From: an uncultured Hyphomicrobiales bacterium
Lineage (GTDB): Bacteria > Bacteroidota > Ignavibacteria > Kapaibacteriales > UBA2268
Direction of reading: 5' to 3'
Assembly (NCBI GenBank): GCA_964606895.1
Contig: CAZSHX010000004.1
Coordinates: 26,789 to 90,788, forward strand
Length of the DNA: 64,000 nt
Part shown: positions 1 through 55,161 of the stretch, one piece after another
Layout of the letters: each line of letters opens with the position of its first letter
How positions within the stretch are numbered: the stretch's first letter is position 1
Made by a program: the position numbers and the translations under genes
The notes under the pieces: model-generated
The model's database searches: none
What the model was told of the DNA's origin: nothing
The model's input: only the letters and a program-made list of their open reading frames with translations

Positions 1-353
1 TTTTTGCCGATTCTGTTGAATTCATGCCAGGAAATTCTGCCGTATTTGTCTGATAAGCCTCTAACGACATCAAGAGTCTTGTCGTTAGAACCATCAGAGC
101 CAACAATTATATTGATTTTTTGATAAGGATAGTCACATTTCGCAACTGATTCAATTGCATCATGAATATATTCTTCTTCGTTGTAAGCGGCGATGATTAC
201 AGTAATTTCAGGCTCAAATTCATTTTTGTAGTTAATGTCATTTTTAACTATTTTGGATATTACAGCTAAGATTATTGGATAAAGCACAGTTACGTACAGA
301 AGAAAAATAACGCAAAGAACAAATAAGAGATTTATAATAAGCAAAATATCCAT
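1..353 (-). CDS. Family 2 glycosyltransferase, N-terminal part only; the gene runs off the left edge of the window
   Basis: The minus-strand ATG at 353..351 gives MDILLIINLLFVLCVIFLLYVTVLYPIILAV... (an N-terminal TM helix), then ITVIIAAYNEEEYIHDAIESV...IVGSDGSNDKTLDVV, a GT2 (DXD-type) signature. It is absent from the ORF track because it is truncated. It lies 44 bp downstream of the 398..2548 gene on the same strand. Confidence 0.6.
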   Translation of the reverse strand, partial: MDILLIINLLFVLCVIFLLYVTVLYPIILAVISKIVKNDINYKNEFEPEITVIIAAYNEEEYIHDAIESVAKCDYPYQKINIIVGSDGSNDKTLDVVRGLSDKYGRISWHEFNRIGK

Positions 354-397
354 TAATAAATTGTATTTCAATATTGATTAATTTTAAAAATAATGTC

Positions 398-2548
398 TTA
401 CATACTTACTTTATTGGTTTCTAACCAATTCTTAGCCGGTAGAAACCCGAGCTTTGCCGCTTTTCTAATTGGTTCGATTGCTTTGTTCTTTTGTTTAAGG
501 TCCATATAGGAAAGTCCCAAATTCATCAAATAACTTGTATTGTTTGGATTGTTCTGAACAGCCTTTGAAAACATTTCGGCGGCAAGTGAGAATTTTTTCT
601 GAACAGCATAAGCAGTGCCCATGTTGTTATAAGCACGGTCGTTTGTCGGGTCAATTTCAATTGCCTTTTTTAACGCTTCAATTGATTTATCGAAAAGTCC
701 CTGCCGACCGTAAAGTTCGCCTAAAGTGATATAGTTTTCAATGTCCTTTGGATTTTTCGCTTTCTGCTTTTCAAAAGATTTAGTTGATGAGGCAATTATT
801 TCCCTTGATTTTGTTGTATCAGCAGAATTTTTGTAAACCTCGAGAAGATTTGCCGCGGCATCACGATAGTCCGGTCTGATTTCGAGTGCTTTTTTGAACA
901 TAATCACTGCCGAGTCTTTTTTATTCAAGTTCATATAAGAAGCTCCCATTGCATTATAAAGTTCATGGTCGTTCTGTCTTAAGCGGTAAGCATTCCAAAG
1001 TGAAAAGATGGCATCCTGATGCAGGTTCTTTGCACCGTACAAAACTCCGAGGAATTTCCATGCTGTATAATAATAAGCATTAACATTCAAAGCAGTTTTC
1101 AAAAGTTTGATTGCCTCATCCCTATTCCCAAGGAAATTTTCAACATCTGCCAGGTTTTGATATGCTTCAAGATAATTAGGATTTATTCTGATTGCAGTAG
1201 TAAAATATTTCTTTGCCTGAAGTGGTTTTTGCTTTTCCTTGAGATAATTTCCCATATTGTAGTTCGCAAGAGCATTTTTGGGGTCAGTCGTTATTGCTCT
1301 GCCGAAGAAAGTAAAAATTGTATTATAATTCTTCGCATTTATAAATGAATATCCCGAAAAGAAAATAATCAAAGTTGCAAAAGCCGCAAGCAGATATTCA
1401 GTTTTGATTTTTGGTTTAAAGCTTTTGTAAATTTCAATCAAGATTATAAATACTCCAATCATCGGCAAATAGGAACGATGCTCGAAATATTCATAGCCGA
1501 AATCAGCATAATTATGTCTGTATGCCATAGCAGGAACTGCAAACAATAACCACCAGCCAATTCCGAAAAGGATTAATCCGCCGGTTTTCTTGTTTTTCTT
1601 CATTATCAGAAGAATAGCAATACCAACCATTAGAATTGTGCCAATTGAGGTCACTAAAGCAGTGAATTTAGGCATTGTGGATAGGCTGACCGGAAGAATG
1701 AATTTTGCAATGATTTCAGGTAAAGTAGGAATATTTGTAATAAATGAGTTTATACTGAATGAATTATCCCCGGGATTAGTTATAATAACTTTACTTCTTG
1801 CAACCATAAAAGCAAGTATTGTGGCAATATAAACTGCAATCAAAAGAATCAGGTAAGGATTTAGCTTCTTTTTTTTCATAACAACAAGGTAATATCCGGC
1901 ATAAACCATCGGGAAAAGTACGGCGGTTTCTTTTGAAAAAACAGCAAGAATAAAACTCAAAATATTTAAAGCAAGGAATTGATACCCTCCGGTTTCAACA
2001 AATTTAACAAAACCAATAAACGAAACAATCCCGAAAAATGCTATCATTAAATCACCGCGAGATGGAACCCATGCAACGGCATGAGTGAAAATGGGATGAA
2101 CAGCATAAATCAAGGCAACAAGCAAAGCCGCTTTTTTGTCGTATTTTAGTATTTTAAACAGAAAGAAGACCGAAAAACAAGTCAGAATATGAAAAATCAG
2201 ATTTGTCAAATGGAATCCTCCGGCATTTTTACCATTGAAAACTGCATCAATCATAAACGATACATTTTGGAGAGGACGATAGAAAGCAAGACCATCCCTT
2301 GAAAAGAAAGCATCTCTTGTAAAGGCTTCCTTTAGGTTAAATACCTTTGCCTGAGAATTGATGTTCTCCACAATGATTACTTTATCATCAAGATAAGTAA
2401 AGCCAAAATTCACAGTTTGCCCATAAACGATAATAACAAGAACAGTTATCAAAGCAAAAGCTACAGGAGTTTTTGTCAGTACTTCAAGAATATTATCAAT
2501 AATATTTGTCTTTTTTTCGATTCCCGGATTCAAATTATCTTGTGTCAT
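398..2548 (-). CDS. Polytopic membrane protein with a C-terminal TPR array; TMTC/PMT-like GT-C glycosyltransferase candidate (paralog a)
   Basis: 716 aa. About 10 predicted TM helices in the N-terminal 400 aa. An acidic loop-1 motif, YLDDKVII, follows TM1. The motifs FYRPLQNVSFMIDA, FHLTNLIFHILTC and WVPSRGDLMIAFFG are shared with the two downstream paralogs. The C-terminal roughly 300 aa are TPR repeats (AxxYxNxG periodicity). Confidence 0.6.
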   Translation of the reverse strand: MTQDNLNPGIEKKTNIIDNILEVLTKTPVAFALITVLVIIVYGQTVNFGFTYLDDKVIIVENINSQAKVFNLKEAFTRDAFFSRDGLAFYRPLQNVSFMIDAVFNGKNAGGFHLTNLIFHILTCFSVFFLFKILKYDKKAALLVALIYAVHPIFTHAVAWVPSRGDLMIAFFGIVSFIGFVKFVETGGYQFLALNILSFILAVFSKETAVLFPMVYAGYYLVVMKKKKLNPYLILLIAVYIATILAFMVARSKVIITNPGDNSFSINSFITNIPTLPEIIAKFILPVSLSTMPKFTALVTSIGTILMVGIAILLIMKKNKKTGGLILFGIGWWLLFAVPAMAYRHNYADFGYEYFEHRSYLPMIGVFIILIEIYKSFKPKIKTEYLLAAFATLIIFFSGYSFINAKNYNTIFTFFGRAITTDPKNALANYNMGNYLKEKQKPLQAKKYFTTAIRINPNYLEAYQNLADVENFLGNRDEAIKLLKTALNVNAYYYTAWKFLGVLYGAKNLHQDAIFSLWNAYRLRQNDHELYNAMGASYMNLNKKDSAVIMFKKALEIRPDYRDAAANLLEVYKNSADTTKSREIIASSTKSFEKQKAKNPKDIENYITLGELYGRQGLFDKSIEALKKAIEIDPTNDRAYNNMGTAYAVQKKFSLAAEMFSKAVQNNPNNTSYLMNLGLSYMDLKQKNKAIEPIRKAAKLGFLPAKNWLETNKVSM

Positions 2549-2678
2549 TATTTTTTTAAAATTTAGTTAATGATACTTCACATCCTGTAACTTGTTTTTT
2601 ACCCGAAAAGTTTAAGTATAATCATTTCTGGATGAAAAGAAACCGAAGTCATAAGTTACAACAATACAAAAATAAGAA

Positions 2679-4691
2679 TTATTTGCAAATTTGTTTCATT
2701 AAAGATGAAGCATTCGGATTTCCCAGTGAGGCAGAAATTTTCAAATCATTGCACATCTCGTCGCTACGACCAAGGCTTTGAAACGATAAAGCCCGATAAA
2801 AGTAAGCACCATCCAGACGTGAATCAATTGAAACAGCACTCGAGAAGTCGTGAATAGCACCTTTGAAATCCTTCATCTGAAATTTTGCGGCTCCTTTATT
2901 CATGTAAATTGTTGCATCTTTTGGATTAAGCGTGATGGCTTTGTCGTAATCAGCGACAGCACCTGCAAAATCTCCGGTATTGAATTTTGTCGTAGCCCTT
3001 GAAAGCCATGCCTCAATAACATTCGGGTTAATCTGAATAGCTTTGTTGCAATCTTCAATCGCACCGTTAAAATCATTCAGTTTTCTTTTCAGTATGCCCC
3101 TATTCACATAAGCTTGTGCGTAATTGGGATTACTCTCTATAGCTTTTGCATAATCAGACATAGCTCCGGCTATGTCATTCACAGGTATTTTAGAAATTGC
3201 CCTGTTGTAGTATGCTTCATAATAATCAGCTTTAAGCTGAATGGCTTTATTATAAAATTGAATAGCCTCATTATGATTTTTCAAATCGGCGTAAACAATT
3301 CCTGCATTATTGTAAGACTCGGCATAATCGGTTTTCAGACGTATTGCCTCCATATAGTCTTCAATCGCACCTTGTTTATTACCTTTGTTATTTTTCAAAG
3401 TGCCTCTGTTGTTTAGAGCCATTGCCGACTTTGGATTTGATTCTACGGCATAATCGTAGAATGAAAGGGCATCCTTATAATTATTTGTCCGAAGAAAGCT
3501 TAAACCTGCAAAAACAATGACAATCAATAAACCGGCATAAAGAATATTTTTCTTTATCTTTTGATTAGAAGTTAACTTAGATATAATTAACCCAATTATT
3601 ACTGAAATTCCAACCGAAGGCATATAAGCTCTATGCTCGAGATACTGGTATCCATATTCACCAAAATCTCTGGAAAAGAGCATACCGGGAAAGACTCCGA
3701 TAAGAAACCAGCCAAAAGCTACGAAATACAGAAACCGCTTTTCTTTGTCAGCCTTATAAATCATATAAGCAATCATTCCAATTAATAAAATACCAATTGA
3801 AGTTGAAAGAATTGAGAATCCGGGCATAGGAGAAAGATTTACGGGTAAGAAGTATTTACCGAATAGTTCCGGAAGAGTCTGAAGATTACCTATTAGCAAA
3901 CCCAAGCCAAAGATATCTCCTCCAGGTCTGGAATTTACGAATGAGTTTCTGATAAGGAGATAAAGAATTGCAAGCGACAAATAAACACCTATTGGAAGTA
4001 AATGCTCTTCCCACTTCTTCCTTCTTGATTCATTGAGCAGTATGTAAAGTATCACTATTCCCGGAAAGACAATCGCACTTTCCTTAGATAGCATTGCCGC
4101 AAAATAAAAAATTCCGGAAAGCAATAAACTTAGATAATTCTTTTTCTGACTGAAACTAATGTAATTGATAAACCAAAAGACACCGAACATTCCAATAAGT
4201 ATATCTCCTCTTGAAGGTATCCATGCAATCGAATGAGTAAACAGTGGATTTACTGCAAAAATCAATGTTGAAAGAAAAGCTGTAAGCTCATCAAATTTTA
4301 ACTTTTTCAATAACAGAAAAACGCCAATACAAGTTAGGAGATGAAATATCAAATTGAAAAAATAAAAACCCCAAATATTTCCTCCGCTGATTTGAGCATC
4401 CAGCATAAAGGAAATATTTTGCAAGGGCCGATAAAACATTATATTAGCAGTATTAAAAAAGGCACCCCGGGTGAAAGCCTCGCCAATATTCGATAAATGA
4501 CTGATAAAAGGTAAGTTCCCTGTTATAATCGCATCTTCGTCCAGTTTACCCAAAGGGAAGCCAAGTATTCTGAAATAGAGCAGGAATATAACAACTGCAA
4601 AAATTATGTAAATGTAGGGTGATTTCAGAAAGTTCAATTTTGAATTTTCTTCCTGTTTTTTCTGATTATTTTTATTCTTATTTTTACTCAT
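2679..4691 (-). CDS. TMTC/PMT-like GT-C glycosyltransferase candidate with TPR tail (paralog b)
   Basis: 670 aa. Same architecture: acidic motif LDEDAIITGN, then FYRPLQNISFMLDA, FNLIFHLLTC and WIPSRGDILIGMFG. The C-terminal half is TPR repeats (AxxNRG...AIxDYxKAI). Confidence 0.6.
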   Translation of the reverse strand: MSKNKNKNNQKKQEENSKLNFLKSPYIYIIFAVVIFLLYFRILGFPLGKLDEDAIITGNLPFISHLSNIGEAFTRGAFFNTANIMFYRPLQNISFMLDAQISGGNIWGFYFFNLIFHLLTCIGVFLLLKKLKFDELTAFLSTLIFAVNPLFTHSIAWIPSRGDILIGMFGVFWFINYISFSQKKNYLSLLLSGIFYFAAMLSKESAIVFPGIVILYILLNESRRKKWEEHLLPIGVYLSLAILYLLIRNSFVNSRPGGDIFGLGLLIGNLQTLPELFGKYFLPVNLSPMPGFSILSTSIGILLIGMIAYMIYKADKEKRFLYFVAFGWFLIGVFPGMLFSRDFGEYGYQYLEHRAYMPSVGISVIIGLIISKLTSNQKIKKNILYAGLLIVIVFAGLSFLRTNNYKDALSFYDYAVESNPKSAMALNNRGTLKNNKGNKQGAIEDYMEAIRLKTDYAESYNNAGIVYADLKNHNEAIQFYNKAIQLKADYYEAYYNRAISKIPVNDIAGAMSDYAKAIESNPNYAQAYVNRGILKRKLNDFNGAIEDCNKAIQINPNVIEAWLSRATTKFNTGDFAGAVADYDKAITLNPKDATIYMNKGAAKFQMKDFKGAIHDFSSAVSIDSRLDGAYFYRALSFQSLGRSDEMCNDLKISASLGNPNASSLMKQICK

Positions 4692-4708
4692 AAATTTTTA
4701 GTTTCCAA

Positions 4709-6517
4709 TTATTTGCAATACTGAATAATTAATTGTTCGGCTTCTTTGTTGCCTAAAGCTACTGCAGACTTCCAGTCGGAGCAGGCTCCGGGGCTGTCTT
4801 TCAATAAATATTTAACTTTACCGCGGTTCAGAAAAGCTTCAGGATTATTCTTGTTGAGTAGAATAGCTTTGCCAAAGTCTTTCAAAGCACCGGAATTATT
4901 ACCGAGCTGTGATTTCACACTTCCCATCGTTAAATATCCGGGCGAATAATTTGGATTAAGCTTCATAGCGGCTTCGTAATCTATCAATGCGTCCTGCAAT
5001 TTTCCTAAATCCAGTTTTATATTTGCAGTGTTAAATCTGGCTTGAAACAGTCCCGGCTTTAATTTTAAAGCAGTTTCATAATCCTTCAAAGCAGCGTTTT
5101 TGTCACCCAAACTGCTTTTCAAAATACCGAGGTTCACATAAACCTGAGCATAATCGGGTTTGAGCTTGATTGCTTCTTGGTAATCAGAAATAGCACCTTG
5201 AGTGTCTTTGATTTCATTTTTTACTAAACCGCGATTATTAACAGCCATTGCAGAATTTGGATTTGCTTCAACGGCAAGATTGTAAAATGTTAATGGATTT
5301 TCGTAATTTTTTGAATACACATAAGAGTATAGTCCATAAATGAGACTCAAGCAAATAAGAATAACCGGAATGGTCGAAATTTTTCGTACCTTTGATATTT
5401 CATTCATCAAACTTCCAAGTATAATCATCATCCCTAACATCGGAAGATAGGCTCTGTGTTCAAGGTAATCATAAGCAGACCCTCCGAGTTCATGGGAGTA
5501 AAGCAAACCGGGCAAAGCAAATAGAACAAACCACAAACTTCCAAAAAGATATATTTTCCGGGATTGTCTGAATTTCATTATCCCAATGATTAGTAAGACA
5601 ATTAAAGCTATCCCGATAAAAGTATTAAGTAAAGTAAATCCTGCCATAGGAGCAAGATGAACAGGAATAAAGAATTTTCCTATAAACTCAGGCAATGTTC
5701 TTATATTATTTAAAAAAGGCATTAACCCAAACTCATTGCCCGAAGGTAATTTATGCACGACAATGCTTCTTAAATAAAAATAGAAGACAGCCACTAAAAC
5801 ATAAGAAACAACAGGAACCAACATGTCCTTCAAACTAACTCTTTTTTCTTTATCTGAAGTTAAATAGAATGCTAAAAATGTCAGAGGAATAATCATTGCT
5901 GTTTCTTTTGATAACACAGCCAAAAGAAAAAAGAGAACATTGAAAGCTAAATCCTTTGGCTTTTTGTCATTTCTATATTTGACAAAAAATATGAAGGATA
6001 AAACTCCGAACAATCCAATAAGCAAATCACCTCTGGAAGGAGCCCATGCAATAGCCTGAACAAAAAGAGGATTGGCGAGAAATAGTAAGCTTACAGAAAA
6101 GTTGATTTTTTTATTTTCATTTAATAAATTCAGGAGATAATACAAGGAACAGACAGTAGATGCATGAATTAGCATATTCGAAAGATAATATCCCCATCCC
6201 ATTGGACCACTTAAATTGGCATCGAGCATTAAAGAGAGATTCTGCAATGGACGGTAGAAGTCAACACCATTAATGCTAAAAAAAGCATCACGAAAAAATG
6301 CTTCTTTAAGATTTCCAAAATCAGTAAGGAAGGGCAGATTATCAAGTATTATCAGGTTCTCATCAAATTTCCCGGGAAAAAAACCCAATATTTGCTGATA
6401 AACAACAAAGACAAGAATAAAAAAAACAGCAAAAGATAACGGATAGTTTGTTATTTGATACCAAAAATCTCTGCTCGCATTTTTGCTTTTTTTTGAATTT
6501 GGTTTTGTTTTGCTCAT
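4709..6517 (-). CDS. TMTC/PMT-like GT-C glycosyltransferase candidate with TPR tail (paralog c)
   Basis: 602 aa. Motifs FDENLIILDN, FYRPLQNLSLMLDA, SNMLIHASTV and WAPSRGDLLIGLFG. C-terminal TPR repeats. It starts 17 bp after paralog b and ends 5 bp after the upstream T9SS gene. Confidence 0.6.
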   Translation of the reverse strand: MSKTKPNSKKSKNASRDFWYQITNYPLSFAVFFILVFVVYQQILGFFPGKFDENLIILDNLPFLTDFGNLKEAFFRDAFFSINGVDFYRPLQNLSLMLDANLSGPMGWGYYLSNMLIHASTVCSLYYLLNLLNENKKINFSVSLLFLANPLFVQAIAWAPSRGDLLIGLFGVLSFIFFVKYRNDKKPKDLAFNVLFFLLAVLSKETAMIIPLTFLAFYLTSDKEKRVSLKDMLVPVVSYVLVAVFYFYLRSIVVHKLPSGNEFGLMPFLNNIRTLPEFIGKFFIPVHLAPMAGFTLLNTFIGIALIVLLIIGIMKFRQSRKIYLFGSLWFVLFALPGLLYSHELGGSAYDYLEHRAYLPMLGMMIILGSLMNEISKVRKISTIPVILICLSLIYGLYSYVYSKNYENPLTFYNLAVEANPNSAMAVNNRGLVKNEIKDTQGAISDYQEAIKLKPDYAQVYVNLGILKSSLGDKNAALKDYETALKLKPGLFQARFNTANIKLDLGKLQDALIDYEAAMKLNPNYSPGYLTMGSVKSQLGNNSGALKDFGKAILLNKNNPEAFLNRGKVKYLLKDSPGACSDWKSAVALGNKEAEQLIIQYCK

Positions 6518-6522
6518 ATTAC

Positions 6523-7713
6523 TTATTCCTTTACAAGCATTTTTAAATGATTTTCTGTCCTGATGAAATATATTCCGTTTACTAAAGAACTCATGTTTAC
6601 TAAAGATAACAGCTCGGGAGTTCTGAATTCCATAACTTTTATTCCTTGAAGATTTAATATTTCAATTCCCTTACAGGATTCCCGATTCTCAACAATAATA
6701 TTCAAATTTTCATGAACCGGATTTGGAAAAATTTTCAAAATGTTTTGAACTTGATTTCCATAAGGAACACTTACAAGTTCGCTTAACTTTGACCTGAATA
6801 TTCCGCCACCGTTGGTTCCGGCATAAATATCGTTTCCACTAATTGCAAGAGCTGATACTAATTTATTGGATAATCCTTTGCTGATTTCCGACCAATTGTG
6901 TCCGTAATCCTTAGAAATAAAAACTCCCGAATATGTGCCGGCAATTACGATATTGCCGTAAATGGTTAACGCAGTAATTGTTGTATTGCTCAAGTCATTA
7001 TTTTTCTCAGACCAAATATTCCCTGAATCTGACGATACGAAAATACCGCTGTAGGTGCCAGCAATAATATTATCCCTGATTACAGCAACAGCACTGATAT
7101 TTGAGTCTGTTAATCCATTGTTTTTTGGAGCCCAGTATGAGCCGTTATCAGATGAAAAATAGAGTCCACTGCCGAAAGTTCCTGCGATAATAAAGTTGTT
7201 ACTTATAAAAATTGATGATACTTTTGGGTTCGAAAATCCGTTGTTCTTTTGTTCCCAATTATCACCAAAATTTGTTGACAAGTAAATACCGCCTCCATAG
7301 GTACCTGCAAAAACATGCCCTTCATATTCGGCTATACATCTGATTTCTGAAACTGTCAATCCGTTGTTCTTTTCTATCCATGTATTTCCGGAATCAGAAG
7401 ATATATATACTCCCCCTGTAAAAGTACCTGCATAAATATTATTTCCGCTGACAGCTAAAGAAGAAATATTTAATTTTTTAAACCCGTTATTTTTCTGATT
7501 CCAGTTACTCCCAAAATTTGTTGAGACAAAAATTCCGCCGTGGTCTGTACCTGCATAAATGATGTTGCCACTAACAGCAATGGCATTTATTACACCTCCG
7601 AACAAGCCGCTACTGCAAGTTTCCCATTGCGAAAATGAGGACTGAAATAAAGCAAAAAACAATATTAATATGAATTTGAGAATATAACTTTCCAATAAAA
7701 TTTCATCAATCAA
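6523..7713 (-). CDS. Secreted beta-propeller (BNR/Ycf48-like repeat) protein with a T9SS C-terminal sorting domain
   Basis: 396 aa. Signal peptide. About eight repeats of the form GT..GG(I/V)(F/Y).S.D.G.(N/S)W. C-terminal tail ...IFPNPVHENLNIIVEN...GIYFIRTENHLKMLVKE, a type-A Por_Secre_tail pattern. Confidence 0.7.
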   Translation of the reverse strand: MIDEILLESYILKFILILFFALFQSSFSQWETCSSGLFGGVINAIAVSGNIIYAGTDHGGIFVSTNFGSNWNQKNNGFKKLNISSLAVSGNNIYAGTFTGGVYISSDSGNTWIEKNNGLTVSEIRCIAEYEGHVFAGTYGGGIYLSTNFGDNWEQKNNGFSNPKVSSIFISNNFIIAGTFGSGLYFSSDNGSYWAPKNNGLTDSNISAVAVIRDNIIAGTYSGIFVSSDSGNIWSEKNNDLSNTTITALTIYGNIVIAGTYSGVFISKDYGHNWSEISKGLSNKLVSALAISGNDIYAGTNGGGIFRSKLSELVSVPYGNQVQNILKIFPNPVHENLNIIVENRESCKGIEILNLQGIKVMEFRTPELLSLVNMSSLVNGIYFIRTENHLKMLVKE

Positions 7714-30528: not shown

Positions 30529-31173
30529 TCATAGAATAGAATATTTAATCAATGCTTTGGATTTGAAAAGTATATAGGTCTCAGTATTAGGTTTGACATT
30601 ATAGGTTACTCTTTTAATGATTCCTTTGCCTGGTGTAATGTAAAACTCTAATTTCAGTTTAGGAGAAACAGCTTCATATTTATAGCAGAAAAATGTTCCT
30701 GCAGAAGTACTGACAACTATACTGGTTTGGATTACAGTAATTTGGAAAGTTTCGTTGAAGTCGGGTATAAAGATTGAATATTTATCGTTTATATTGCAAG
30801 GATACTTAAAGAATAGTGAATTCACGAAAACACCATCATTATTTTTGTAAGTTACATAATATCCATCGGTCGAATTACTCGAGAAATAGGAATTGTTGGC
30901 ACTATTTGAAAACCATTTTGTAGCGGAAATTGTTGTATCAACAGTTATGGATTCATGCAAAGTATCGAAAGCAACTTCACTTTGATAGTCAGGGTCGTAT
31001 TCCACATCTTCATAAGTCCAACTATTGCCGATTTTCAAAGGAATAATCTCCTGAGACTTCGCTGGCGGTGGAGTATCGGTAGTTCCGGCACAGGAAATAA
31101 GCATAATGGCAACTAATGCTAAAATTACAAATCCGGTTAAACCGGAGGAAAAATATTTCTTATTCGTTGCCAT
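30529..31173 (-). CDS. Hypothetical lipoprotein
   Basis: 214 aa, VILALVAIMLISCAGTT lipobox. It overlaps the upstream T9SS gene by 14 bp, so the two are probably co-transcribed. Confidence 0.45.
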   Translation of the reverse strand: MATNKKYFSSGLTGFVILALVAIMLISCAGTTDTPPPAKSQEIIPLKIGNSWTYEDVEYDPDYQSEVAFDTLHESITVDTTISATKWFSNSANNSYFSSNSTDGYYVTYKNNDGVFVNSLFFKYPCNINDKYSIFIPDFNETFQITVIQTSIVVSTSAGTFFCYKYEAVSPKLKLEFYITPGKGIIKRVTYNVKPNTETYILFKSKALIKYSIL

Positions 31174-32458
31174 TTAATTTTACAAATTTTCCAAAATGAG
31201 TACTACTGCCATTAATGATTTTATAGAAATAAATACCGGCTGAAATATCTTTTAAATCGAAACTTTTTGATAAATCAGGCATCACTTCATTAGCAATTGT
31301 TTTGCCAAAAATATCAGTAATTGTAATTTTTGAATTAGTCAGCAAATTTTTATTAAAGGAGAATTCAATGTAATCAGAACATGGATTAGGATAGACAACA
31401 ATGTCATTCCCGGAATCAGGTATTTCATCAACATCAAGGATAACACCGCCTTTCCTGAAAACGGACATTCCGCCCCATGATGTACCAATCCACTTGTTAT
31501 TGAGTTTATCTGCGGCTATTGTCCATACCCTGTTTGCTGAAAGCAGAGAATTGTTGATGTCGAAAGTCTCCCATTTATTTCCATCAAATGAAGTAAGTCC
31601 TGAAATTGAACCGAACCATAGTATTCCGTTGCTGTCCAAGGCTATAGCAACCACCTCATTTGAAGGCAGACCTGCATTCAGGGAATCGAAAATGGTCCAT
31701 TTGCTTCCATCGAATTTTGCAACTCCGCCGCCTAAAGTTGCAAGCCACTTGTTGTTGCTTTTATCAACAAGAATTGAACGTACCCGGTTGTTCGGGAGTT
31801 CTGAATTGGATGTGTCGTAAACGGTTAGCTTTTTCCCGTCATATTTGAGCAGTCCACTGCCGTCAGTGCCAATCCAAATAATTTCATCTTTATCCTCGGC
31901 AAAGGAAATGATACACTTCCGTTGGATTTGAGTCAGCAGAGAATCGAAATTATGCCATTTCCCGTCAAATTTAAAGAATCCATCGCACCAGCTACCTGCC
32001 CAAATATTCTGTTTGGAATCCACAAAAGCTGAAAAGATATAATTATTACTAATTGCAGAATTTGATTTATTAAAGGACATCCATGACGAGCCGTCAAACT
32101 TCACTAACCCGTTTTCCATGGTGCCTGCCCATAGATTGCTTGCTTCATCCAATTGCAGAGAGAAGACCGTATTGTCAGTGAGACCAGAATTCTTAGAATT
32201 ATAAGTAACAAAATGCTTGCCGTCAAATTTGGCAATACCTCCTCCGTTGGTTCCTATCCACTTATTTAGATTATTATCAATAATAATACTCCAAACAACA
32301 TCGTGGGGAATCATTGAATTGCGGGTATTGAAAGTCACCCAGTCATTAATCTGTGAATAAAGCAGATTGACCGAAATAAAAAAGAAGGCAAAAGCTATTT
32401 TCCAAATATCAATTTTGGTTTTCATTAATAAACCTGTATCAAGAAACAACCAATACAA
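31160..32458 (-). CDS. Beta-propeller repeat protein (two-component-regulator-propeller-like repeats) with a T9SS C-terminal sorting domain
   Basis: 432 aa. Repeats W(I/L)GT..GGG(I/V)(A/S)KFDG..W. C-terminal VVYPNPCSDYIEFSF...GIYFYKIINGSSTHFGKFVKLNGNE. Confidence 0.65.
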   Translation of the reverse strand: MYWLFLDTGLLMKTKIDIWKIAFAFFFISVNLLYSQINDWVTFNTRNSMIPHDVVWSIIIDNNLNKWIGTNGGGIAKFDGKHFVTYNSKNSGLTDNTVFSLQLDEASNLWAGTMENGLVKFDGSSWMSFNKSNSAISNNYIFSAFVDSKQNIWAGSWCDGFFKFDGKWHNFDSLLTQIQRKCIISFAEDKDEIIWIGTDGSGLLKYDGKKLTVYDTSNSELPNNRVRSILVDKSNNKWLATLGGGVAKFDGSKWTIFDSLNAGLPSNEVVAIALDSNGILWFGSISGLTSFDGNKWETFDINNSLLSANRVWTIAADKLNNKWIGTSWGGMSVFRKGGVILDVDEIPDSGNDIVVYPNPCSDYIEFSFNKNLLTNSKITITDIFGKTIANEVMPDLSKSFDLKDISAGIYFYKIINGSSTHFGKFVKLNGNE

Positions 32459-33474: not shown

Positions 33475-34581
33475 TTATTCCTGCGTCAGTTGATTTTTCA
33501 ACTTGCTGATTAATGGAATAGGTGTGGGATCAACTCCATTTAAAATTGCCATAAAATAACTAACCCAATCACCGAGGTAAATCAGGTCGAACATTCTGGT
33601 TAATAAATTTTCGCCATCACCTTTGATTTCAATAACATGCTTCACACTGCTTTCGATTAGCGAATGAAGTGCATTAAAACGTATTTTTACTCTTGGATGG
33701 TCATAAGGGTCACGCATGAAAATCACTGAGAATCTCGTTGTTAAATCTTCAGGATAACTCCATGAATTTATTTCGTTATGATTCATTTCGGGAAGTAAAT
33801 TGCCGAAAGCAAGTTGTTTGGCATTTTCCTGAATCTGACAGCGCCATCTGAGGTTTACCGAGTCCAGTCTTTCTGCAGGAGAATAAATAACAGGAACCGA
33901 ATTGTAGAGCTTTTCAGCCAGTTGGAATGCAACATTTCTGCCGTTTTCCAAATCGGTATAAGCATCGGCTTTGATAAAAAGTAAATCCAAAAGCTCATTC
34001 ATGCAAAATTGTATATTTGAATCAGTTTTGAATGCAGAGCTTTTTTGAAGAAGATAAAGCATTGGAACAAATGAATAACCAAGAGCACATCTTGGCTGTA
34101 ATCCACCAGGAACTTTTATAACAGGATAGCCATACTTGAGGGCAAGCTCTTCGAGTTTGCCGCCTGTGGTGATGCAAATAATTCTGTCTGTATATTTTCG
34201 GGCATCTTCAAATGCCGAGATAGTTTCTTCAGTATTCCCCGAATAGGAACTTGCAATAACATTCGTATTTTCATTTATCGAAGCAGGAACTGAGTAGCCC
34301 CTGTTAGTTCTGATTAAAAGATGATTTGCCCAGGGTGTTGCACTGCAGAAAGAAGCAAGCAGGTCGCCACCGATTGCAGAACCGCCCATGCCGAGAATCA
34401 GGTATTCATTTGATACAGGCTTACTGTTGAAACCCGCGGCATCTTTGCCGATTTCAATTGCTTCCTTCACCTGCATAGGAAAATTCTTCAATATTTCGAA
34501 CATGTTTTGAGAGTCTGATTTTTCAATATTCTCTCTGTAAATCTTAGCCATTATTAAATCCTTAAATAACAATTTTAACAT
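33475..34581 (-). CDS. SIS-domain bifunctional phosphoglucose/phosphomannose isomerase-like protein
   Basis: LILGMGGSAIGGDLL (SIS motif), IASSYSGNTEET, ITTGGKL. About 340 aa if it starts at MAKIYRE. Confidence 0.6.
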   Translation of the reverse strand: MLKLLFKDLIMAKIYRENIEKSDSQNMFEILKNFPMQVKEAIEIGKDAAGFNSKPVSNEYLILGMGGSAIGGDLLASFCSATPWANHLLIRTNRGYSVPASINENTNVIASSYSGNTEETISAFEDARKYTDRIICITTGGKLEELALKYGYPVIKVPGGLQPRCALGYSFVPMLYLLQKSSAFKTDSNIQFCMNELLDLLFIKADAYTDLENGRNVAFQLAEKLYNSVPVIYSPAERLDSVNLRWRCQIQENAKQLAFGNLLPEMNHNEINSWSYPEDLTTRFSVIFMRDPYDHPRVKIRFNALHSLIESSVKHVIEIKGDGENLLTRMFDLIYLGDWVSYFMAILNGVDPTPIPLISKLKNQLTQE

Positions 34582-34759: not shown

Positions 34760-35467
34760 ATGAATAAAGATAATACTTACATAGTTGTTTGTGCCTACAA
34801 CGAAGAAAAAGCCATTGCTTCAGTCATTAACGGACTGAATGAAATGGGTTTCAGAAAAATCGTTGTTGTAAACGACGGAAGTTCAGACGAGACAGGAAAT
34901 GTTGTCCGCAATTTTCCTGTAGTGCTGATTGAACATATAATTAACCGAGGGCAGGGAGCCGCTATCGCAACAGGATTGGAATATTGTTCCCGTCTGGAGG
35001 ACTGTAAATTTATTGCTACATTTGATGCAGACAGTCAACACAGACCCGAAGACCTTGAAAAAATGGCAGAAATGATTTTCAATTCTGATTCCGATATTGT
35101 TCTTGGTTCAAGATTTTTGGATTTAAAAAGTGAATCAATGCCATTCGGCAGAAAATTCATCCTGAAATGTGCCGCTTTATTTATTCGTTTCATGTACGGT
35201 TTGAAGTTCACCGATGCCCACAACGGTTTGAGAATTATGAAAAAGGAAGTTTGCCGAAAAATAATGCCTTTTACGGATGGGATGCTTCACGCTTCGGAAA
35301 TGATATATTTAATCAAGAAAAACCGTTTGAAATACCTTGAATCACCTGTGAAGATAAATTACACTGAGTATTCCATTTCCAAAGGTCAGAAATCTTCAGG
35401 TTTTGCCTATCTTGGTTTTTTGACAATTTATCATAAAATAATTCTGCTTCTGTTTGAAAAGGACTAA
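34760..35467 (+). CDS. GT2 glycosyltransferase, DPM1/GtrB-like (polyprenyl-phosphate sugar synthase type)
   Basis: YIVVCAYNEEKAI, VVNDGSSDET, FDADSQHRPEDL (DXD), FTDAHNGLRIM. Confidence 0.75.
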   Translation: MNKDNTYIVVCAYNEEKAIASVINGLNEMGFRKIVVVNDGSSDETGNVVRNFPVVLIEHIINRGQGAAIATGLEYCSRLEDCKFIATFDADSQHRPEDLEKMAEMIFNSDSDIVLGSRFLDLKSESMPFGRKFILKCAALFIRFMYGLKFTDAHNGLRIMKKEVCRKIMPFTDGMLHASEMIYLIKKNRLKYLESPVKINYTEYSISKGQKSSGFAYLGFLTIYHKIILLLFEKD

Positions 35468-49144: not shown

Positions 49145-51169
49145 TTATATCTTTACAAACTTCATTACTTTATCCCCAACTCGCACAAAATACATTCCCG
49201 ATGGCAAACCCGAAATGTCAATTCTTAAGCCCTCTCCTTCGGGGAGGGTTTGGGTGGGGTTCTTCAGGGTTTCACCGAAAACGTTGAAGATCCGGATGTC
49301 TGTTTTGGTCAAGGCATGCCTTGACCCTACAGAGATTTCTATATAATACTCTGCAGGATTGGGCGAGATTTGAAAATCATTATTGCTGAATTTTGGGTTA
49401 TCTTCAATATATGCGATATCGAAATCACTTATATCTGCTCTGAAGGCACCCCTGCCGGTTGTACCAGCAAAGACATGATTACCTGTTTTTAAAATCGAAC
49501 TTATCGTTGTCTTGTTCAAACCGTAATTCTTTTCTGTCCAAAAATCTTCATTGTCATTTGAGAAATAGACTCCTTCATTAGTGCCGGCAAAAATATTTTT
49601 CCCTTCAACAATAATGCACTTTACTACTAAATTATTAAGACCATTATTTTTTGTGACCCAATGGTCTCCAAAATCTGTTGAATAGAACAAACCACCGCCG
49701 TCAGTTCCTGCATAAATGTTTTTTCCCCGAACAGCAATGGAAAGAACACCTTGGGAAGTAAATCCCTCATATTTTGAGAACCAATCAATTCCATTGTTTG
49801 AAGAAACAAATACTCCATTTTCTGTAGTACCTGCGACAACAGAATTACCTTCGGCACAAATCGCCCTTACATCTCCCATATTCTTTGATTTCCAGTTTAT
49901 CCCGTTGTCATTCGAAATATAAATACCACCTGAAAAACCTGCAAAAATATTTTTTCCGTTAGCCTCAAGCCCAAGTATAAAGCTACTATTCAAAGTATCG
50001 CTAATCGTCCAGTTTATGCAGTTATCAACAGAATGAAATAATCCTCGGGATGTACCGGCAAATGTAAAATCATCATTTTCAGCAAGTTTATAAACGTGCT
50101 TGTTAGTTAATGTTTGATTACTTGTTAAATTCCAAGTCTCACCGTTATCAGATGATGAAAAAATTCCGTTACCAAGTGTACCGGCTTTTAAGTTTGTCCC
50201 ATCATATAAAAATGCAGTAACAGTTGTTGAACTTAATCCGTTGTTTTTTTCAGTCCAACTATCTCCAAAATCCTTCGAGAGGAATACCCCCCCACCGCCC
50301 ATAGCCGCAAAAATGTTATCATCTTTAAAGGCAATGTTGCGAATATTCGTATTTGACATGATTTCTGATTTTTCAACCCAGCTATCACCGTTATTTGTTG
50401 ATATGAAAATCTTACCGGATGACATGCCTGCAATTATTTTTTTATCTTTAATAGCCATCCATCCGACGGTTAGATCAGTTAAACCGATATTCTTTGAAAC
50501 CCATGTATTTGAACTATCAGCCAAGAAAAATACCCCAAGCATTGTCGCCGCAAAAACATTCTTTCCTTCAGTAACAATTTGCATAACTATTGGGAAATTG
50601 ATGCCATTATTATTCTGTACCCAGTTTTCCCCGCTGTCGGTCGAAATAAAAATCCCTCTGTCACGGGTAGCGGCAAAAACATTATTTCCCGAAAATGCTA
50701 CATTCAGAACCCAATTCGTAGAAAGACCATTACTTTTGTCCTGCCAGTTAACGCCGGAATCAGTTGAAACGAATATTCCGGTAGGAGTACCTGCATAAAC
50801 GGTATTTCCGTCGAAGGCAATACAATTAACCCTGTGGTCAAGCAATCCTGTATTTTTTGGGGTCCAGCTGTTCCCACTATCATTTGAAGAAAAGATGCCG
50901 TCACCCCACGTTCCTGCTAAGATAATATTCTGCCGAATTGCAACAGATTTGAGAAAAAGGTTTGTTAATCCTGTGTTTTTTTCAATCCAACTGTCGCCAT
51001 TGTCAGTTGAAAGAAAAACGCCTCCCCCCCAGGTTCCGCAAAATATATTGTTCTCCCTGAAAGCAATTGAATTTATTGTCCCTCCGTTCAATCCGGAATT
51101 GTGTGGCTCCCATTTGGAATATAAATGCTGAATCATGATTAAAAGCAAAATAATAATAATTTTTTTCAT
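49145..51169 (-). CDS. BNR/Ycf48-like beta-propeller repeat protein with a T9SS C-terminal sorting domain
   Basis: 674 aa. Signal peptide. More than 12 repeats of GT..(G/R)G(I/V)F.S.(D/N).G..W. C-terminal ISPNPAEYYIEISVG...GMYFVRVGDKVMKFVKI. Confidence 0.7.
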   Translation of the reverse strand: MKKIIIILLLIMIQHLYSKWEPHNSGLNGGTINSIAFRENNIFCGTWGGGVFLSTDNGDSWIEKNTGLTNLFLKSVAIRQNIILAGTWGDGIFSSNDSGNSWTPKNTGLLDHRVNCIAFDGNTVYAGTPTGIFVSTDSGVNWQDKSNGLSTNWVLNVAFSGNNVFAATRDRGIFISTDSGENWVQNNNGINFPIVMQIVTEGKNVFAATMLGVFFLADSSNTWVSKNIGLTDLTVGWMAIKDKKIIAGMSSGKIFISTNNGDSWVEKSEIMSNTNIRNIAFKDDNIFAAMGGGGVFLSKDFGDSWTEKNNGLSSTTVTAFLYDGTNLKAGTLGNGIFSSSDNGETWNLTSNQTLTNKHVYKLAENDDFTFAGTSRGLFHSVDNCINWTISDTLNSSFILGLEANGKNIFAGFSGGIYISNDNGINWKSKNMGDVRAICAEGNSVVAGTTENGVFVSSNNGIDWFSKYEGFTSQGVLSIAVRGKNIYAGTDGGGLFYSTDFGDHWVTKNNGLNNLVVKCIIVEGKNIFAGTNEGVYFSNDNEDFWTEKNYGLNKTTISSILKTGNHVFAGTTGRGAFRADISDFDIAYIEDNPKFSNNDFQISPNPAEYYIEISVGSRHALTKTDIRIFNVFGETLKNPTQTLPEGEGLRIDISGLPSGMYFVRVGDKVMKFVKI

Positions 51170-51180
51170 GTTTTTTATCC

Positions 51181-53625
51181 TTATATCTTCACAAATTTCC
51201 CAACTTTTTCCCCCACCCTCACAAAATATATTCCAGGAGACAAACCCGAAACATCAATTTTTTCTTTCCATTCCGTTTCAAAAACTTTTAAGCCGAGAGT
51301 AGAAAAGATTTGAATTGTTTTGATATTCTTTAAAGTATGTAAATAAAGATGATCGACAGCGGGATTAGGACTTAACTGTGATGAAAAATCAGATTGTCGG
51401 ATATCTTCATTCACATCAGTGATTATATCTAATTTTGCTACAAATACATCACCATCGACATACTCGTGATTAGGTTTACCGATAGGCTCATAAGCATTTG
51501 GAGTTGTGGGAAAATCTGTAGAATTTGTTGCGCCAGCTATTATTATTGAACCGGCATCATCTATATCAATTAATGAACCTTCCTCCCATGCGATTCCTCC
51601 AAGATATGTTGAAAATAACAATTTCGATAAATCAGGATTCATTTTGCTGATGAAAGCATCCCCGAATGCACCAATATCTAAATTTGTTCCGTTGTTTTGG
51701 GTTTGGATAGCATCTTTTGTCAAAGGAAAATCGTCTGTCCATGTATTACCGATTAAAAAAACATTGTTTAAACTGTCGAGTATCATATCGTGACAATCCG
51801 AATCCCATCTCCCGCCTAATAAAGTAGAACTTATTAAAGCAGAGCAATCTTTATTAAATTTAGATATGAAAAGCATCCCGTCCCCGAAATATTTTCTTTG
51901 ATATGCATTTGGTGTAGTCGGAAAATCTTCCTGTGGTGTAGTTCCGGCTATGTATGGATTCCCTTCAGTATCTAGTTTTATTTTATTGATTGACATGCCT
52001 CTTTTAGGATTGCCAAAATATGTTGAAAATAATAATTTTTCGCAATTAGAATCAAATTTACTTATGAATCCTGAAACGGGAAAATCGTTATTTGTGTTGA
52101 TTTTTTTTTGATAGGCATTAGTTGAAATTTGGAAATCTTTGGATTCTGTTGCACCTGTGATATATATATTCTTATCCTTATCAATTATCATACTTTTTGG
52201 TGAATCCCAACCGGAACCTCCAAAAAATGAAGAAAATACAATTCCTGATAAATCAGGTTTAAACTTTGTGATGAATGCATCTGTCTGTCCGGATATTTTC
52301 TTTTGATATGCTCTGGAAGTTATCGGAAAATCAACAATATTCGAATCTGCCGGTTTAATATATCCTAAGACATAAGAATATCCTTCGTCATCAATAAAAG
52401 AATCATATAATTCATATGTGCCGGGACTATTTAAATTTGTATCACAGCCGAATAAGGTTGAATTAATAATTTTTGTTCCTGAACTATCGAATTGAGTTAT
52501 GAATATATTGTTATTACCATGAGGAATTCCTTTGAGTTTTTTTTGATAAGCATTTAATGTTGTAGGAAAGTCGTCTGCAGCTAAGTCGTAACTAATAGCT
52601 GTACCAATAACATTGATTTTGTTATTATGTATAATTATTTTATATGGATGCGTACCCAGATTTGATGAATCTCCGCCAAAATAACTTGAATAAATTAACT
52701 TTGAACCATCAGCTGAAAGAACTGAAAAGAAACCTGTTCCATTATTTTTTTTCATCGCATTTTCAGTAATTGGATAATCTTTTGAGTTAGTATATCCAGT
52801 AATAAATATATTCCCTGCTTTATCATGTGTAATAGAATTAGGGTGGTCATCTCTATAGCCATGTATATAAGTTGAAAAAACTAATGGGTCAATAATTAAA
52901 TCGTATGTTTTATCGTATTGATTTGCATCAAAACTTAAAAGGTCGTTGTTAAATTGGATTTTTGCAGGAATATCTTTCTTTTGATTTTGTATTAACTGGT
53001 ATGAGAATAAGTCCTTATGCTCAATTGTTCCTAATATTGTCGATATAAGCACTTTCCCATTATTCAACCAAATCGAGTCTGCACCCTCAAAATTTATTTT
53101 TATTTCAGAAATATTAGCTCCCGGATGAACAATAAAATCATATCTGAATTGATTTTGCTGGAAATACAGCCGCATATCAATTCCATCATATAGATTATCA
53201 ATGAGAACTTCTTTGAAGTGTGAAACATTTGTTGCCCATTTTAATTTATCACTGCCAATAAAATAATTATAGTATGAAGAAAGTTTATTGACTCCTGAAA
53301 TATTTTTTCTTTCCAAATTAAAATTTGAATTTGCAAACTGCATCTTTATGACTTGACTCAGAACCTCTCTTTCCTGATTGTTTATCCCTTTATCTTTAAT
53401 ATCATAATCAATTTTATTTCGAGTGAAACATTTTGGATCAGGATTACACTCATTTTGATAATAATCGAAAACAATATCTCTATCAGTTACCCATATATTG
53501 CAGCCAGGAAGATTAGCAAAGAATTTTACTTCCGAATTCCACTGACCTTTGTTTTCAACGAAAAAACTCTCTTTTGCAAAAGCAAAATTGGATAAAATTA
53601 AAACCACTAATAATATTTTTCTCAT
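51181..53625 (-). CDS. SBBP beta-propeller repeat protein with a T9SS C-terminal sorting domain
   Basis: 814 aa. Signal peptide. Repeats (F/Y)S(S/T)(Y/F)(F/L)GG...D......D..GN(I/V)(Y/F)(I/L)(T/A)G.T.S.DFP.T. C-terminal LSPNPAVDHLYLHTL...GIYFVRVGEKVGKFVKI. Confidence 0.7.
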   Translation of the reverse strand: MRKILLVVLILSNFAFAKESFFVENKGQWNSEVKFFANLPGCNIWVTDRDIVFDYYQNECNPDPKCFTRNKIDYDIKDKGINNQEREVLSQVIKMQFANSNFNLERKNISGVNKLSSYYNYFIGSDKLKWATNVSHFKEVLIDNLYDGIDMRLYFQQNQFRYDFIVHPGANISEIKINFEGADSIWLNNGKVLISTILGTIEHKDLFSYQLIQNQKKDIPAKIQFNNDLLSFDANQYDKTYDLIIDPLVFSTYIHGYRDDHPNSITHDKAGNIFITGYTNSKDYPITENAMKKNNGTGFFSVLSADGSKLIYSSYFGGDSSNLGTHPYKIIIHNNKINVIGTAISYDLAADDFPTTLNAYQKKLKGIPHGNNNIFITQFDSSGTKIINSTLFGCDTNLNSPGTYELYDSFIDDEGYSYVLGYIKPADSNIVDFPITSRAYQKKISGQTDAFITKFKPDLSGIVFSSFFGGSGWDSPKSMIIDKDKNIYITGATESKDFQISTNAYQKKINTNNDFPVSGFISKFDSNCEKLLFSTYFGNPKRGMSINKIKLDTEGNPYIAGTTPQEDFPTTPNAYQRKYFGDGMLFISKFNKDCSALISSTLLGGRWDSDCHDMILDSLNNVFLIGNTWTDDFPLTKDAIQTQNNGTNLDIGAFGDAFISKMNPDLSKLLFSTYLGGIAWEEGSLIDIDDAGSIIIAGATNSTDFPTTPNAYEPIGKPNHEYVDGDVFVAKLDIITDVNEDIRQSDFSSQLSPNPAVDHLYLHTLKNIKTIQIFSTLGLKVFETEWKEKIDVSGLSPGIYFVRVGEKVGKFVKI

Positions 53626-53634
53626 AATTAATCT

Positions 53635-55161
53635 CTATATTTTAATGAATTTACTTACTTGATTACCTACCCACACAAAATATACCCCCGACGGCAAATC
53701 CGAAACGTCAATTCTTTGTCCTCCGCTGGCGGAGGTGTCTGCGGAGCAGACGGAGGTGGACTCTTCCTGCCCAAACACATTGTAAATCCTAAGAACTGGA
53801 TTCCTCACTTCGTGCGGAATGACGGTTAGGTTGAATGATATTACAATAAAATCTTCTGCAGGGTTCGGTTGAATGGAAAAATTATCCAAGGCCTTAATTT
53901 CTTGTTGCTCATTTATCCCATCGGGTTTCTCGATTTCTATGGCACCAATGGAACGTGATGTAATTGAAAATTGATTGCCGTAAAAATCGGTGGTTGGCTC
54001 TGTCTCGGTCATGCCCTTTCCTAAAGCAGGACTGCCCACAACGAGATGAAAGTCATTGCCCGAACCATCAGCGAAGATTTGCGTTCCTGAGCCATAAATC
54101 ATTGGATTTTGGTCCTTTATGGCATCCAAATCCGGAGTATCCCAATATGGTCCTTTAAATGACGGATTCGTTATGCCATAATAAATATTTTTCCCGAAGC
54201 TTGCCGCCCCCGCCGGCTGTATTCCTCCATTAATATAAGCTGAAGAACCAAAAGCAAATATATTATTTTCAATTCTGTTTCCTGATAATGACGGGTACAG
54301 ACTGCTCGTGGTAAGAAAACGCATGGTTGCCTGTCCGCAATTGTAAAAAGTATTGTTAATCACTTTGCAATCAACAGCCGAAGACAGAGCTAATCCCCGA
54401 TAGCCGCCAATGATTATGTTAGAATAAAATTTAAGATTTTTGACTTCAAATTTATCTTCGGGGCAGTAGAACTCTGCACCGGTGTCGCCACCAAGTTCAA
54501 ACGCAACCCATGGGTCTTTCGAGGCGTTAATGAAAATATTTCGTTCCATGGTAATATTGGATGCACCGCCCTTGATATGCCCCCCGGTCAGGCAATTTTC
54601 AAATCGGTTAAGGCGTATAATCCCATTCCGGCAAACATTATAATCCATAGTTGAAAGTCCCGACATATCTTTGAAAATGCAATTCGTCACTTCGAAGCTG
54701 TCCACACCGCCAAATTTAAAAGCGGCTATTGCTTTCGGGTCAGTCGCATTTGAAAAGACGCAACTGTCCACCTTGATAAATTTTGACTGAGTTTCACAGC
54801 TACCGCTATTGTCAACGCTGAAGAGCCTTCCCGGATATTTGGCATTACCTTTGAAATTCAGATTAAGGAACTTAATATACTCACAACTCATAAACTGCCA
54901 GCAACCTGAAATATCTATTTCATCATTTTCAAACCGGCTGATAACTATCGGGTTGGATTTATTGCCCTTTAATTTGGATATACCCTGATAGCCGCCGTAA
55001 GAACCAGCATGCAGAAAAACCGTATCGCCCGGATGAATTGCCACGGCATTCACAGCGGCTTCAATATTCGGATACGTCTGCCCGGGACCAAGGTGGACAT
55101 TGCCCAAGCAAGACATTGAAAATAAAAAGATAGACAACAATGCTATAAATAAAGCTTTCAT
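53635..55161 (-). CDS. Right-handed parallel beta-helix (pectate-lyase-fold) protein with a T9SS C-terminal sorting domain
   Basis: 508 aa. Signal peptide. Repeated NxxF(x)N/G-rich coil motifs (INNTFYNCGQ, IENNIFAFGS). C-terminal IQPNPAEDFIVISFN...GVYFVWVGNQVSKFIKI. Confidence 0.6.
   Translation of the reverse strand: MKALFIALLSIFLFSMSCLGNVHLGPGQTYPNIEAAVNAVAIHPGDTVFLHAGSYGGYQGISKLKGNKSNPIVISRFENDEIDISGCWQFMSCEYIKFLNLNFKGNAKYPGRLFSVDNSGSCETQSKFIKVDSCVFSNATDPKAIAAFKFGGVDSFEVTNCIFKDMSGLSTMDYNVCRNGIIRLNRFENCLTGGHIKGGASNITMERNIFINASKDPWVAFELGGDTGAEFYCPEDKFEVKNLKFYSNIIIGGYRGLALSSAVDCKVINNTFYNCGQATMRFLTTSSLYPSLSGNRIENNIFAFGSSAYINGGIQPAGAASFGKNIYYGITNPSFKGPYWDTPDLDAIKDQNPMIYGSGTQIFADGSGNDFHLVVGSPALGKGMTETEPTTDFYGNQFSITSRSIGAIEIEKPDGINEQQEIKALDNFSIQPNPAEDFIVISFNLTVIPHEVRNPVLRIYNVFGQEESTSVCSADTSASGGQRIDVSDLPSGVYFVWVGNQVSKFIKI

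Follow-up and report, generated by a model that had tools for sequence, protein, structure and literature searches.

Near the start of the 64,000-nucleotide stretch analysed here (an uncultured bacterium of the Kapaibacteriales, contig CAZSHX010000004.1, positions 26,789 to 90,788; hereafter the window) lie three adjacent genes, paralogs A, B and C, and our analysis supports their assignment as enzymes of the glycosyltransferase C fold (GT-C) with a TMTC/PMT-like architecture, in which a multi-helix membrane domain is followed by an array of tetratricopeptide repeats (TPRs). We propose that they work in the periplasm, draw on a polyprenyl-phosphate sugar and probably glycosylate proteins, a reading to which we give a probability of about 0.55 and whose donor type, protein acceptor and division of labour between paralogs are what we infer. 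An earlier note on this DNA had recognised the same architecture and had also joined the three genes to their two neighbours in one dedicated O-glycosylation module; the architecture is borne out, whereas the flanks of the proposed module are not conserved in relatives.

Pairwise BLASTP aligns the three proteins over nearly their whole length (A-B, 33% identity, E 3e-117; B-C, 39%, E 1e-148; A-C, 35%, E 2e-102), and they are clear paralogs, as had been claimed. The acidic motifs YLDDKV, LDEDAI and FDENLI and the common blocks FYRPLQN.SFM.DA, N.I.H and W.PSRGD, all reported before, are present in these alignments. By Pfam, each of A, B and C contains a TPR array, and PMT_2 (PF13231) is matched by B at 38.8 bits and by C at 32.6, both above the gathering cut-off of 26.1; 12 of the 20 diverse family N-terminal domains that make up our alignment A2 match PMT_2 likewise. 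None of the three belongs with Wzy_C (PF04932), the domain of O-antigen ligases, in agreement with the earlier exclusion of that function. Used as a query, the N-terminal 405 residues of B retrieve a coherent protein family whose members are labelled "tetratricopeptide repeat protein", "glycosyltransferase family 39 protein" or, by JGI, "protein O-mannosyl-transferase", and which come mainly from metagenome-assembled genomes (MAGs) of Bacteroidota, Ignavibacteria and Kapabacteria; more distant ones occur in Paceibacterota and Omnitrophota. An exhaustive phmmer search counted in cluster representatives gives 41,279 members at E<=1e-3, 8,571 at E<=1e-10 and 642 at E<=1e-30; the membrane domain is thus that of a very common, large family that automated pipelines already label. 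No paper characterising a bacterial TMTC-like member was found in literature searches, so that the description of these enzymes as essentially uncharacterised stands, and Eisenhaber et al. mention prokaryotic TMTC homologs only in passing (PMC7801869).

Searched by sequence against the PDB, full-length B finds TPR proteins only and its N-terminal domain alone finds nothing, which made a fold comparison necessary. There the multi-helix membrane module fits the fold of the solved GT-C enzymes, and the best match is Pmt4, a protein O-mannosyltransferase, with sequence identity to PMT structures of 13-14%. The AlphaFold2 model has 11 transmembrane helices (TM): the multi-helix N-terminal domain described earlier is confirmed, its count of about ten helices is not. 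The N-terminal tail carries 7 Lys/Arg residues, the periplasmic loops just 8 in 126 residues, and helix ends on the cytoplasmic side look rich in Lys/Arg when judged by eye; from this bias and the modelled helix boundaries, the N-terminus is predicted to be cytoplasmic and the TPR array periplasmic.

Across the 20 domains of A2 (residue numbers are those of B), D51, Y87, R88, P89, P149, D163, E204 and G300 are invariant and H117, R161, K203, R248 and H353 nearly so. D51, the aspartate of the acidic loop motif whose conservation had been in question, is invariant also in a narrower alignment, A3, and is present in A, B and C. In the model the conserved polar residues all appear to fall in periplasmic loops: D51 and Y87-R88-P89 in extracytoplasmic loop 1 (EL1), D163 in EL2, K203/E204 in EL3, R248 at the outer end of TM7 and H353/R354 in EL5. 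By position, D51 would be the counterpart of the TMTC DD, ArnT D55/E56 and Pmt1 D77/E78 motifs (set out in PMC7801869), suggesting a putative catalytic or acceptor-binding role. From the 34-residue periodicity, C has about five TPR units, B seven and A eight or nine. In B and C, and not in A, the array ends in a TPR-capping helix held between two cysteines (C647/C669 in B, positions 2679-2750; C579/C601 in C, positions 4709-4780), a pattern kept in the family consensus 'ACxDWxxAxxLG...C'; such a pair could form a disulfide in the periplasm.

Human TMTC1-4 cross the membrane with 11 helices, their N-terminus lying in the cytoplasm and their TPRs in the lumen (Eisenhaber et al., PMC7801869), and A, B and C are predicted to share this plan, down to the long EL1 and EL4 and the short EL2, EL3 and EL5; as with TMTC1-4, several paralogs occur in one genome. 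The TMTC motifs comprise EL1 DD, EL1 SHKSYRP, an EL2 Asp paired with an EL3 Lys, AERV before TM10 and EL4 DW (PMC7801869). Five of these six have counterparts by position in our family (D51-E/D, Y87-R88-P89, D163, K203 and E352-H353-R354): EL1 has an acidic D-D/E as well as a Y-R-P, EL2 an Asp, EL3 a Lys, and EL5 a basic residue ahead of TM10. The correspondence is not complete, as 'SHK' is missing ahead of YRP and EL5 reads E-H-R where TMTC has A-E-R-V. The setting differs as well: A, B and C would sit in a bacterial inner membrane facing the periplasm, and their carrier would be undecaprenyl phosphate or similar rather than dolichol. Among the PDB sequence and fold matches there is no solved structure of a human TMTC.

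Other relatives share parts of this architecture. The PMT/POMT enzymes (GT39; fungal, animal and actinobacterial) have the acidic D-E motif in loop 1, and Pfam returns matches to both PMT_2 and PMT here; PMT/POMT proteins however carry a MIR beta-trefoil domain, which Pfam does not find in A, B or C and in whose stead these have a TPR array, and their likeness in sequence is confined to the low identity given above, with no PDB match by sequence profile. TMEM260, a human GT-C O-mannosyltransferase, also combines a GT-C module with an extracytoplasmic TPR domain; that domain alone suffices for specific binding of an acceptor peptide, and an additional luminal domain supplies the catalytic-base aspartate (bioRxiv 10.64898/2026.03.17.711096). 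No such extra domain is seen in A, B or C, and the TMEM260 family model in Pfam is matched neither by them nor by the family N-terminal domains.

How might such enzymes work? We envisage that a cytoplasmic glycosyltransferase of family 2 (GT2), of the kind of dolichol-phosphate mannose synthase (DPMS) or PpgS, would load a single sugar onto polyprenyl phosphate, that the linked sugar would be flipped across the membrane, and that each GT-C paralog would transfer it in the periplasm to an acceptor held by its own TPR domain, the EL1 aspartate standing at the acceptor hydroxyl while the donor phosphate would lie at basic residues of EL1 and EL5. The acceptors would most likely be Ser/Thr residues of exported proteins; this is favoured by the Pmt4 and PMT_2 best matches and by the TMTC architecture. 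As in TMTC1-4, A, B and C might serve separate acceptor classes. The same logic, in which a GT2 makes a polyprenyl-phosphate sugar that is flipped and then transferred outside the cytoplasm by a GT-C enzyme, is known from ArnT and Gtr systems and from streptococcal GtrB/PgtC2, and is expected here. To our knowledge GT-C enzymes of the Gtr/ArnT type lack TPR arrays. The Gtr system consists of the flippase GtrA, the GT2 GtrB and the GT-C enzyme GtrC (PMC11127046), and Ppm1/Pmt and ArnC/ArnT are, like GtrB/GtrC, known pairs of a GT2 with a GT-C enzyme; in streptococci, GtrB and the GT-C enzyme PgtC2 glucosylate Ser/Thr-rich protein regions (PMC12041528).

A candidate donor synthase is encoded in the window by a soluble DPMS/PpgS-like GT2 gene (Table 1). 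Its best NCBIfam match is PpgS (polyprenyl-phospho-GalNAc synthase; 186 bits, below the cut-off of 370), followed by AglJ and by dolichyl-phosphate hexose transferase, and its best PDB match is the dolichol-phosphate mannose synthase 5mlz (E 3e-12). The divergent neighbouring gene encodes an isomerase that may supply hexose phosphate for the donor. Were the GT-C enzymes to draw on a polyprenyl-phosphate monosaccharide, pairing of TMTC-like genes with such a GT2 would be expected. In two relative loci a DPMS/PpgS-like GT2 gene starts before a TMTC-like gene has ended, the overlap being 20 nt (L044 11889-12632) or 4 nt (L045 11902-12642), which suggests translational coupling, and in two more it lies downstream on the same strand, at 1.3 kb (L041) or 3 kb (L033). 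On a rough estimate that assumes about 2 copies per 3000 genes, about 0.5 such genes would be expected by chance within 10 kb across the 44 loci and 4 were seen (about 3 of them independent). We regard this GT2 as a plausible partner and a better candidate than the GT2 that adjoins the array.

Several observations weigh against our reading. The donor-synthase candidate lies 28 kb from the array in the window, and just 4 of the 44 relative loci link such a GT2 to a TMTC-like gene; nor was a GtrA-like flippase seen, although no dedicated search for one was made. A has no Pfam match to PMT_2 at E<0.01, and DUF1736 (PF08409), which covers the EL4 loop with its DW motif, is detected in none of the 20 family N-terminal domains at E<=1 and in none of A, B and C, being carried by one distant relative (P0120). 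A profile built from the 20 domains retrieves no relative among PDB sequences, so that the residue roles proposed above rest on positional analogy. Since DUF1736 and the DW motif are undetectable, we call A, B and C TMTC-like in architecture and probable mechanism and do not file them as members of the TMTC family.

The relatives inform both the age of the paralogs and the question of their partners. A scan of a genome collection with two peptide patterns from A3 returned 46 loci, all in MAGs of the FCB group; these patterns reach close relatives only, and the scan is uninformative on model Bacteroidota (B. fragilis, F. johnsoniae). Tandem copies are frequent among the 88 family genes counted in 44 loci: nine in L007, seven in L014 and L018, six in L020 and in L051+L052, four in L043 and three in L027, L028 and L037. 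In the long arrays (L007 1-18858, L014, L018, L020, L051+L052) the copies are mostly on the same strand, often with one inverted at the end. The counterparts of A, B and C in the closest relative lie at distances of 0.24, 0.37 and 0.39, while the sister paralogs are 0.61-0.65 apart; each is closer to its counterpart elsewhere than to its sisters, and the duplication is therefore ancient. The A ortholog is L052:3830-5953 (the gene at distance 0.24), the gene nearest to C by distance is L051:8134-9981, and the order C-B-A is kept in L051/L052; relatives of C at 45-49% identity are found in many loci of FCB-group MAGs. The B ortholog (P0002, 58% identity) stands within a six-copy array preceded by a gene for an SLT lytic transglycosylase and followed by one for a 2-hydroxyacid dehydrogenase; the next closest to B (P0003, 51%) is one of a pair, again with SLT before and a pyridoxal phosphate-dependent (PLP) decarboxylase after. 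SLT-domain lytic transglycosylase genes lie on the same strand directly ahead of the array at L051 1693-2592 and L053 6699-7607. No non-family neighbour recurs in more than five of the 44 loci, and neither a propeller nor a GT2 stands beside the arrays of P0002 and P0003. The conserved genomic unit is thus the paralog array itself, with the propeller and the GT2 outside it: of the synteny proposed earlier, the array is kept and both flanks are not.

The strongest alternative, less probable in our judgement but a serious rival, is that these GT-C enzymes act on a non-protein acceptor (lipid A or the core of lipopolysaccharide (LPS), capsule or exopolysaccharide (EPS), or peptidoglycan), as ArnT, GtrC and Aft/Emb do, with the TPR array docking onto envelope machinery. 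The SLT genes directly before the arrays of the two closest relatives speak for it, as do the EPS-synthase-like GT2 that adjoins the array here and the fact that the DPMS-like GT2 has PpgS as its best match in NCBIfam, PpgS being known to feed a GT-C enzyme that decorates mycobacterial arabinogalactan. Yet the best fold match is Pmt4 and the best Pfam matches are PMT families, and both the motif set and the layout of a GT-C module with C-terminal TPRs match the protein-specific TMTC enzymes; among characterised GT-C enzymes that modify glycans or lipids, none with this architecture is known to us. Up to nine diverged paralogs in one array would also fit many classes of protein acceptor better than a single glycan, and EPS/LPS genes are not conserved as neighbours.

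Protein acceptors remain our preferred reading, but it is improbable that they are to be sought in the adjoining genes, as would follow if the five genes formed one dedicated O-glycosylation module in which the GT2 provides the glycan or extends it, with the propeller, or type IX secretion system (T9SS) cargo generally, as the acceptor. The five genes do follow one another on the minus strand, transcribed in the order propeller, C, B, A, GT2, with gaps of 44, 130, 17 and 5 bp from GT2 to propeller, as described earlier. No terminator-like site falls in these gaps: the six found are all intragenic and as many as in shuffled sequence, and the promoter and terminator scan as a whole gave no more sites than its shuffles. 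Judged from this arrangement, co-transcription is possible.

The GT2 end of the run nevertheless offers no partner. The truncated gene carries a Glycos_transf_2 domain (Pfam), is 390 aa at full length in L003:4846-6018, and from its sequence is a cellulose-synthase-like membrane GT2 rather than a polyprenyl-phosphate sugar synthase; Gtr systems, by contrast, have an adjacent GT2 of the GtrB type. The closest homologs of this GT2 lie in Wza/Wzi/Bac_transf polysaccharide clusters that have no TMTC-like neighbour, and just 1 of the 46 loci has a homolog, 7 kb off and on the opposite strand. As a donor synthase it was rejected on family, fold and genomic context, and the partnership proposed for it earlier is not supported. 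In L003, the roughly 190 bp past the GT2 stop up to the contig end (5990-6211) contain a palindromic repeat ('gtcattctgaac...gaagaatc...cagaatgac'), which may be a dispersed, assembly-breaking repeat.

At the other end, the product of 6523..7713 is a real candidate for T9SS cargo, as the earlier note had it: it matches Por_Secre_tail at 38.7 bits (cut-off 27), TIGR04183 at 28.7 bits (cut-off 23) and, in Pfam, Sortilin-Vps10, with six [ST]x[DN]xGxxW boxes at a period of about 41 aa. Read by eye, its N-terminus ('...KFILILFFALFQSSFSQ') is hydrophobic and resembles a signal peptide; public gene calls give it a later start and 379 aa. It contains no Bacteroidota O-glycosylation motif D[ST][AILVMT], which is irrelevant to a TMTC-type, fold-specific mechanism. 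A paralog with 40% identity is encoded at 49145..51169, and at least seven genes with such a T9SS C-terminal sorting domain (CTD) lie in the 64 kb window. CTD genes being so frequent here, adjacency by chance is likely and the propeller is probably a chance neighbour of the array.

Among the relatives, T9SS cargo was considered as a conserved neighbour of the arrays and is not supported as one. Por_Secre_tail occurs in 7 of 77 neighbours of family genes (9%) against 4 of 114 non-adjacent genes in the same loci (3.5%), a weak enrichment that is not significant (one-sided Fisher p=0.10) and whose seven neighbours include near-duplicate loci. What can be said for the module is that large T9SS cargo abuts the array in some Ignavibacteria-type relatives, namely, in striking cases, a 1546-aa SprB-repeat protein (directly upstream; L006 and L013) and a 1558-aa fn3 protein (directly downstream; L027 and L028), and, by analogy, that TMTCs act on beta-sandwich (cadherin) domains such as many T9SS cargos carry; against this stands the lack of a propeller at the arrays of the closest relatives, and the proposal that the propeller is the acceptor is not supported, although the idea of T9SS cargo as acceptor stays alive. 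Finally, TMTC proteins were first described as adaptors or chaperones of the endoplasmic reticulum and accepted as enzymes only later, and A falls below the PMT_2 threshold, but it is very improbable that one or more copies are catalytically dead TPR scaffolds or chaperones of the periplasm, given that A (with YLDDKV, FYRPLQ, AWVPSRGD, SKE and EHR), B and C all retain the invariant family residues (EL1 Asp, YRP, EL2 Asp, K-E and EL5 H-R).

A 2025 review notes that neither the transferase nor the core-glycan machinery behind O-glycosylation in Bacteroidota has been discovered and advises a search for homologs of eukaryotic O-mannosylation enzymes (PMC12871550). It is tempting, if doubtful, to see in the TMTC-like arrays of Ignavibacteria, Kapabacteria and Bacteroidota the missing initiators of this process, each enzyme adding a single O-mannose-like sugar from polyprenyl phosphate to folded domains of exported proteins, T9SS cargo included, much as TMTC1-4 act on cadherins; the window holds nothing that ties the family specifically to the Bacteroidota pathway. 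Should protein glycosylation be correct, bacteria would possess a TMTC-type O-glycosylation pathway in which TPR domains choose the substrates, the count of paralogs (as many as nine in a row) would indicate how many classes of acceptor there are, and there would be both a concrete candidate for the enzyme attaching the first sugar in Bacteroidota and a tractable bacterial model for the human TMTC enzymes. The present result is a well-supported family assignment and a correction as to which GT2 is the plausible partner, not a new system.

Table 1. Coordinates in the window of the array, its flanking genes and the further genes considered here.
Feature	Position	Strand	Remarks
GT2, truncated	1..353	-	N-terminal 117 aa of a 390-aa membrane GT2; the gene starts at 353 and leaves the window
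Paralog A, 716 aa	398..2548	-	GT-C TM domain aa 1-410 (1319..2548); about 8-9 TPR units and an insertion (398..1318)
Paralog B, 670 aa	2679..4691	-	GT-C TM domain aa 1-405 (3477..4691); seven 34-aa TPR units and Cys-capped terminal helix (2679..3476)
D51-E52-D53 codons of B	4533..4541	-	EL1 acidic motif right behind TM1; predicted catalytic/acceptor-binding aspartate
Paralog C, 602 aa	4709..6517	-	GT-C TM domain aa 1-405 (5303..6517); five TPR units and Cys-capped terminal helix (4709..5302)
Asp-box (BNR) beta-propeller with T9SS C-terminal sorting domain, 396 aa	6523..7713	-	Pfam Por_Secre_tail, Sortilin-Vps10
Bifunctional phosphoglucose/phosphomannose isomerase	33475..34581	-	Pfam bact-PGI_C; NCBIfam NF006426 349.5 bits (cut-off 295); divergent from the DPMS/PpgS-like GT2
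Soluble GT2, 235 aa, DPMS/PpgS/AglJ-like	34760..35467	+	Pfam Glycos_transf_2 only; 28 kb from the array
Further CTD genes	31160..32458, 49145..51169, 51181..53625, 53635..55161, 55530..55988, 59045..60463

The CTD genes are unusually dense in the window. Three stand in a row (49145-55161) and encode a BNR double propeller, a DUF7948+SBBP protein and a beta-helix protein, and the other three (31160-32458, 55530-55988 and 59045-60463) a Reg_prop propeller, a small FlgD_ig protein and a beta-lactamase-fold protein. Between 1 and 12000, no open reading frame of at least 80 aa is present besides the listed genes and obvious antisense frames, and the window has no Rfam match. A, B, C, the truncated GT2 and a 1449-aa activase are present in public collections, unnamed; the activase (9793-14142, minus strand) joins two BcrAD/BadFG-type activase ATPase modules and a DUF2229 domain in a single protein, resembling acyl-CoA dehydratase activases. 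The gene 83 bp upstream of the propeller gene (7797-9761, minus strand) encodes a LytS/YehU-type histidine kinase that has a TPR region at its N-terminus; a weak homolog (29% identity) occurs in L038, 2 kb upstream of a TMTC-like gene, probably by chance. Two plus-strand genes (56049-58910 and 60509-61402) both encode the Fibrobacter succinogenes major paralogous domain, in one of them together with seven IPT/TIG domains.

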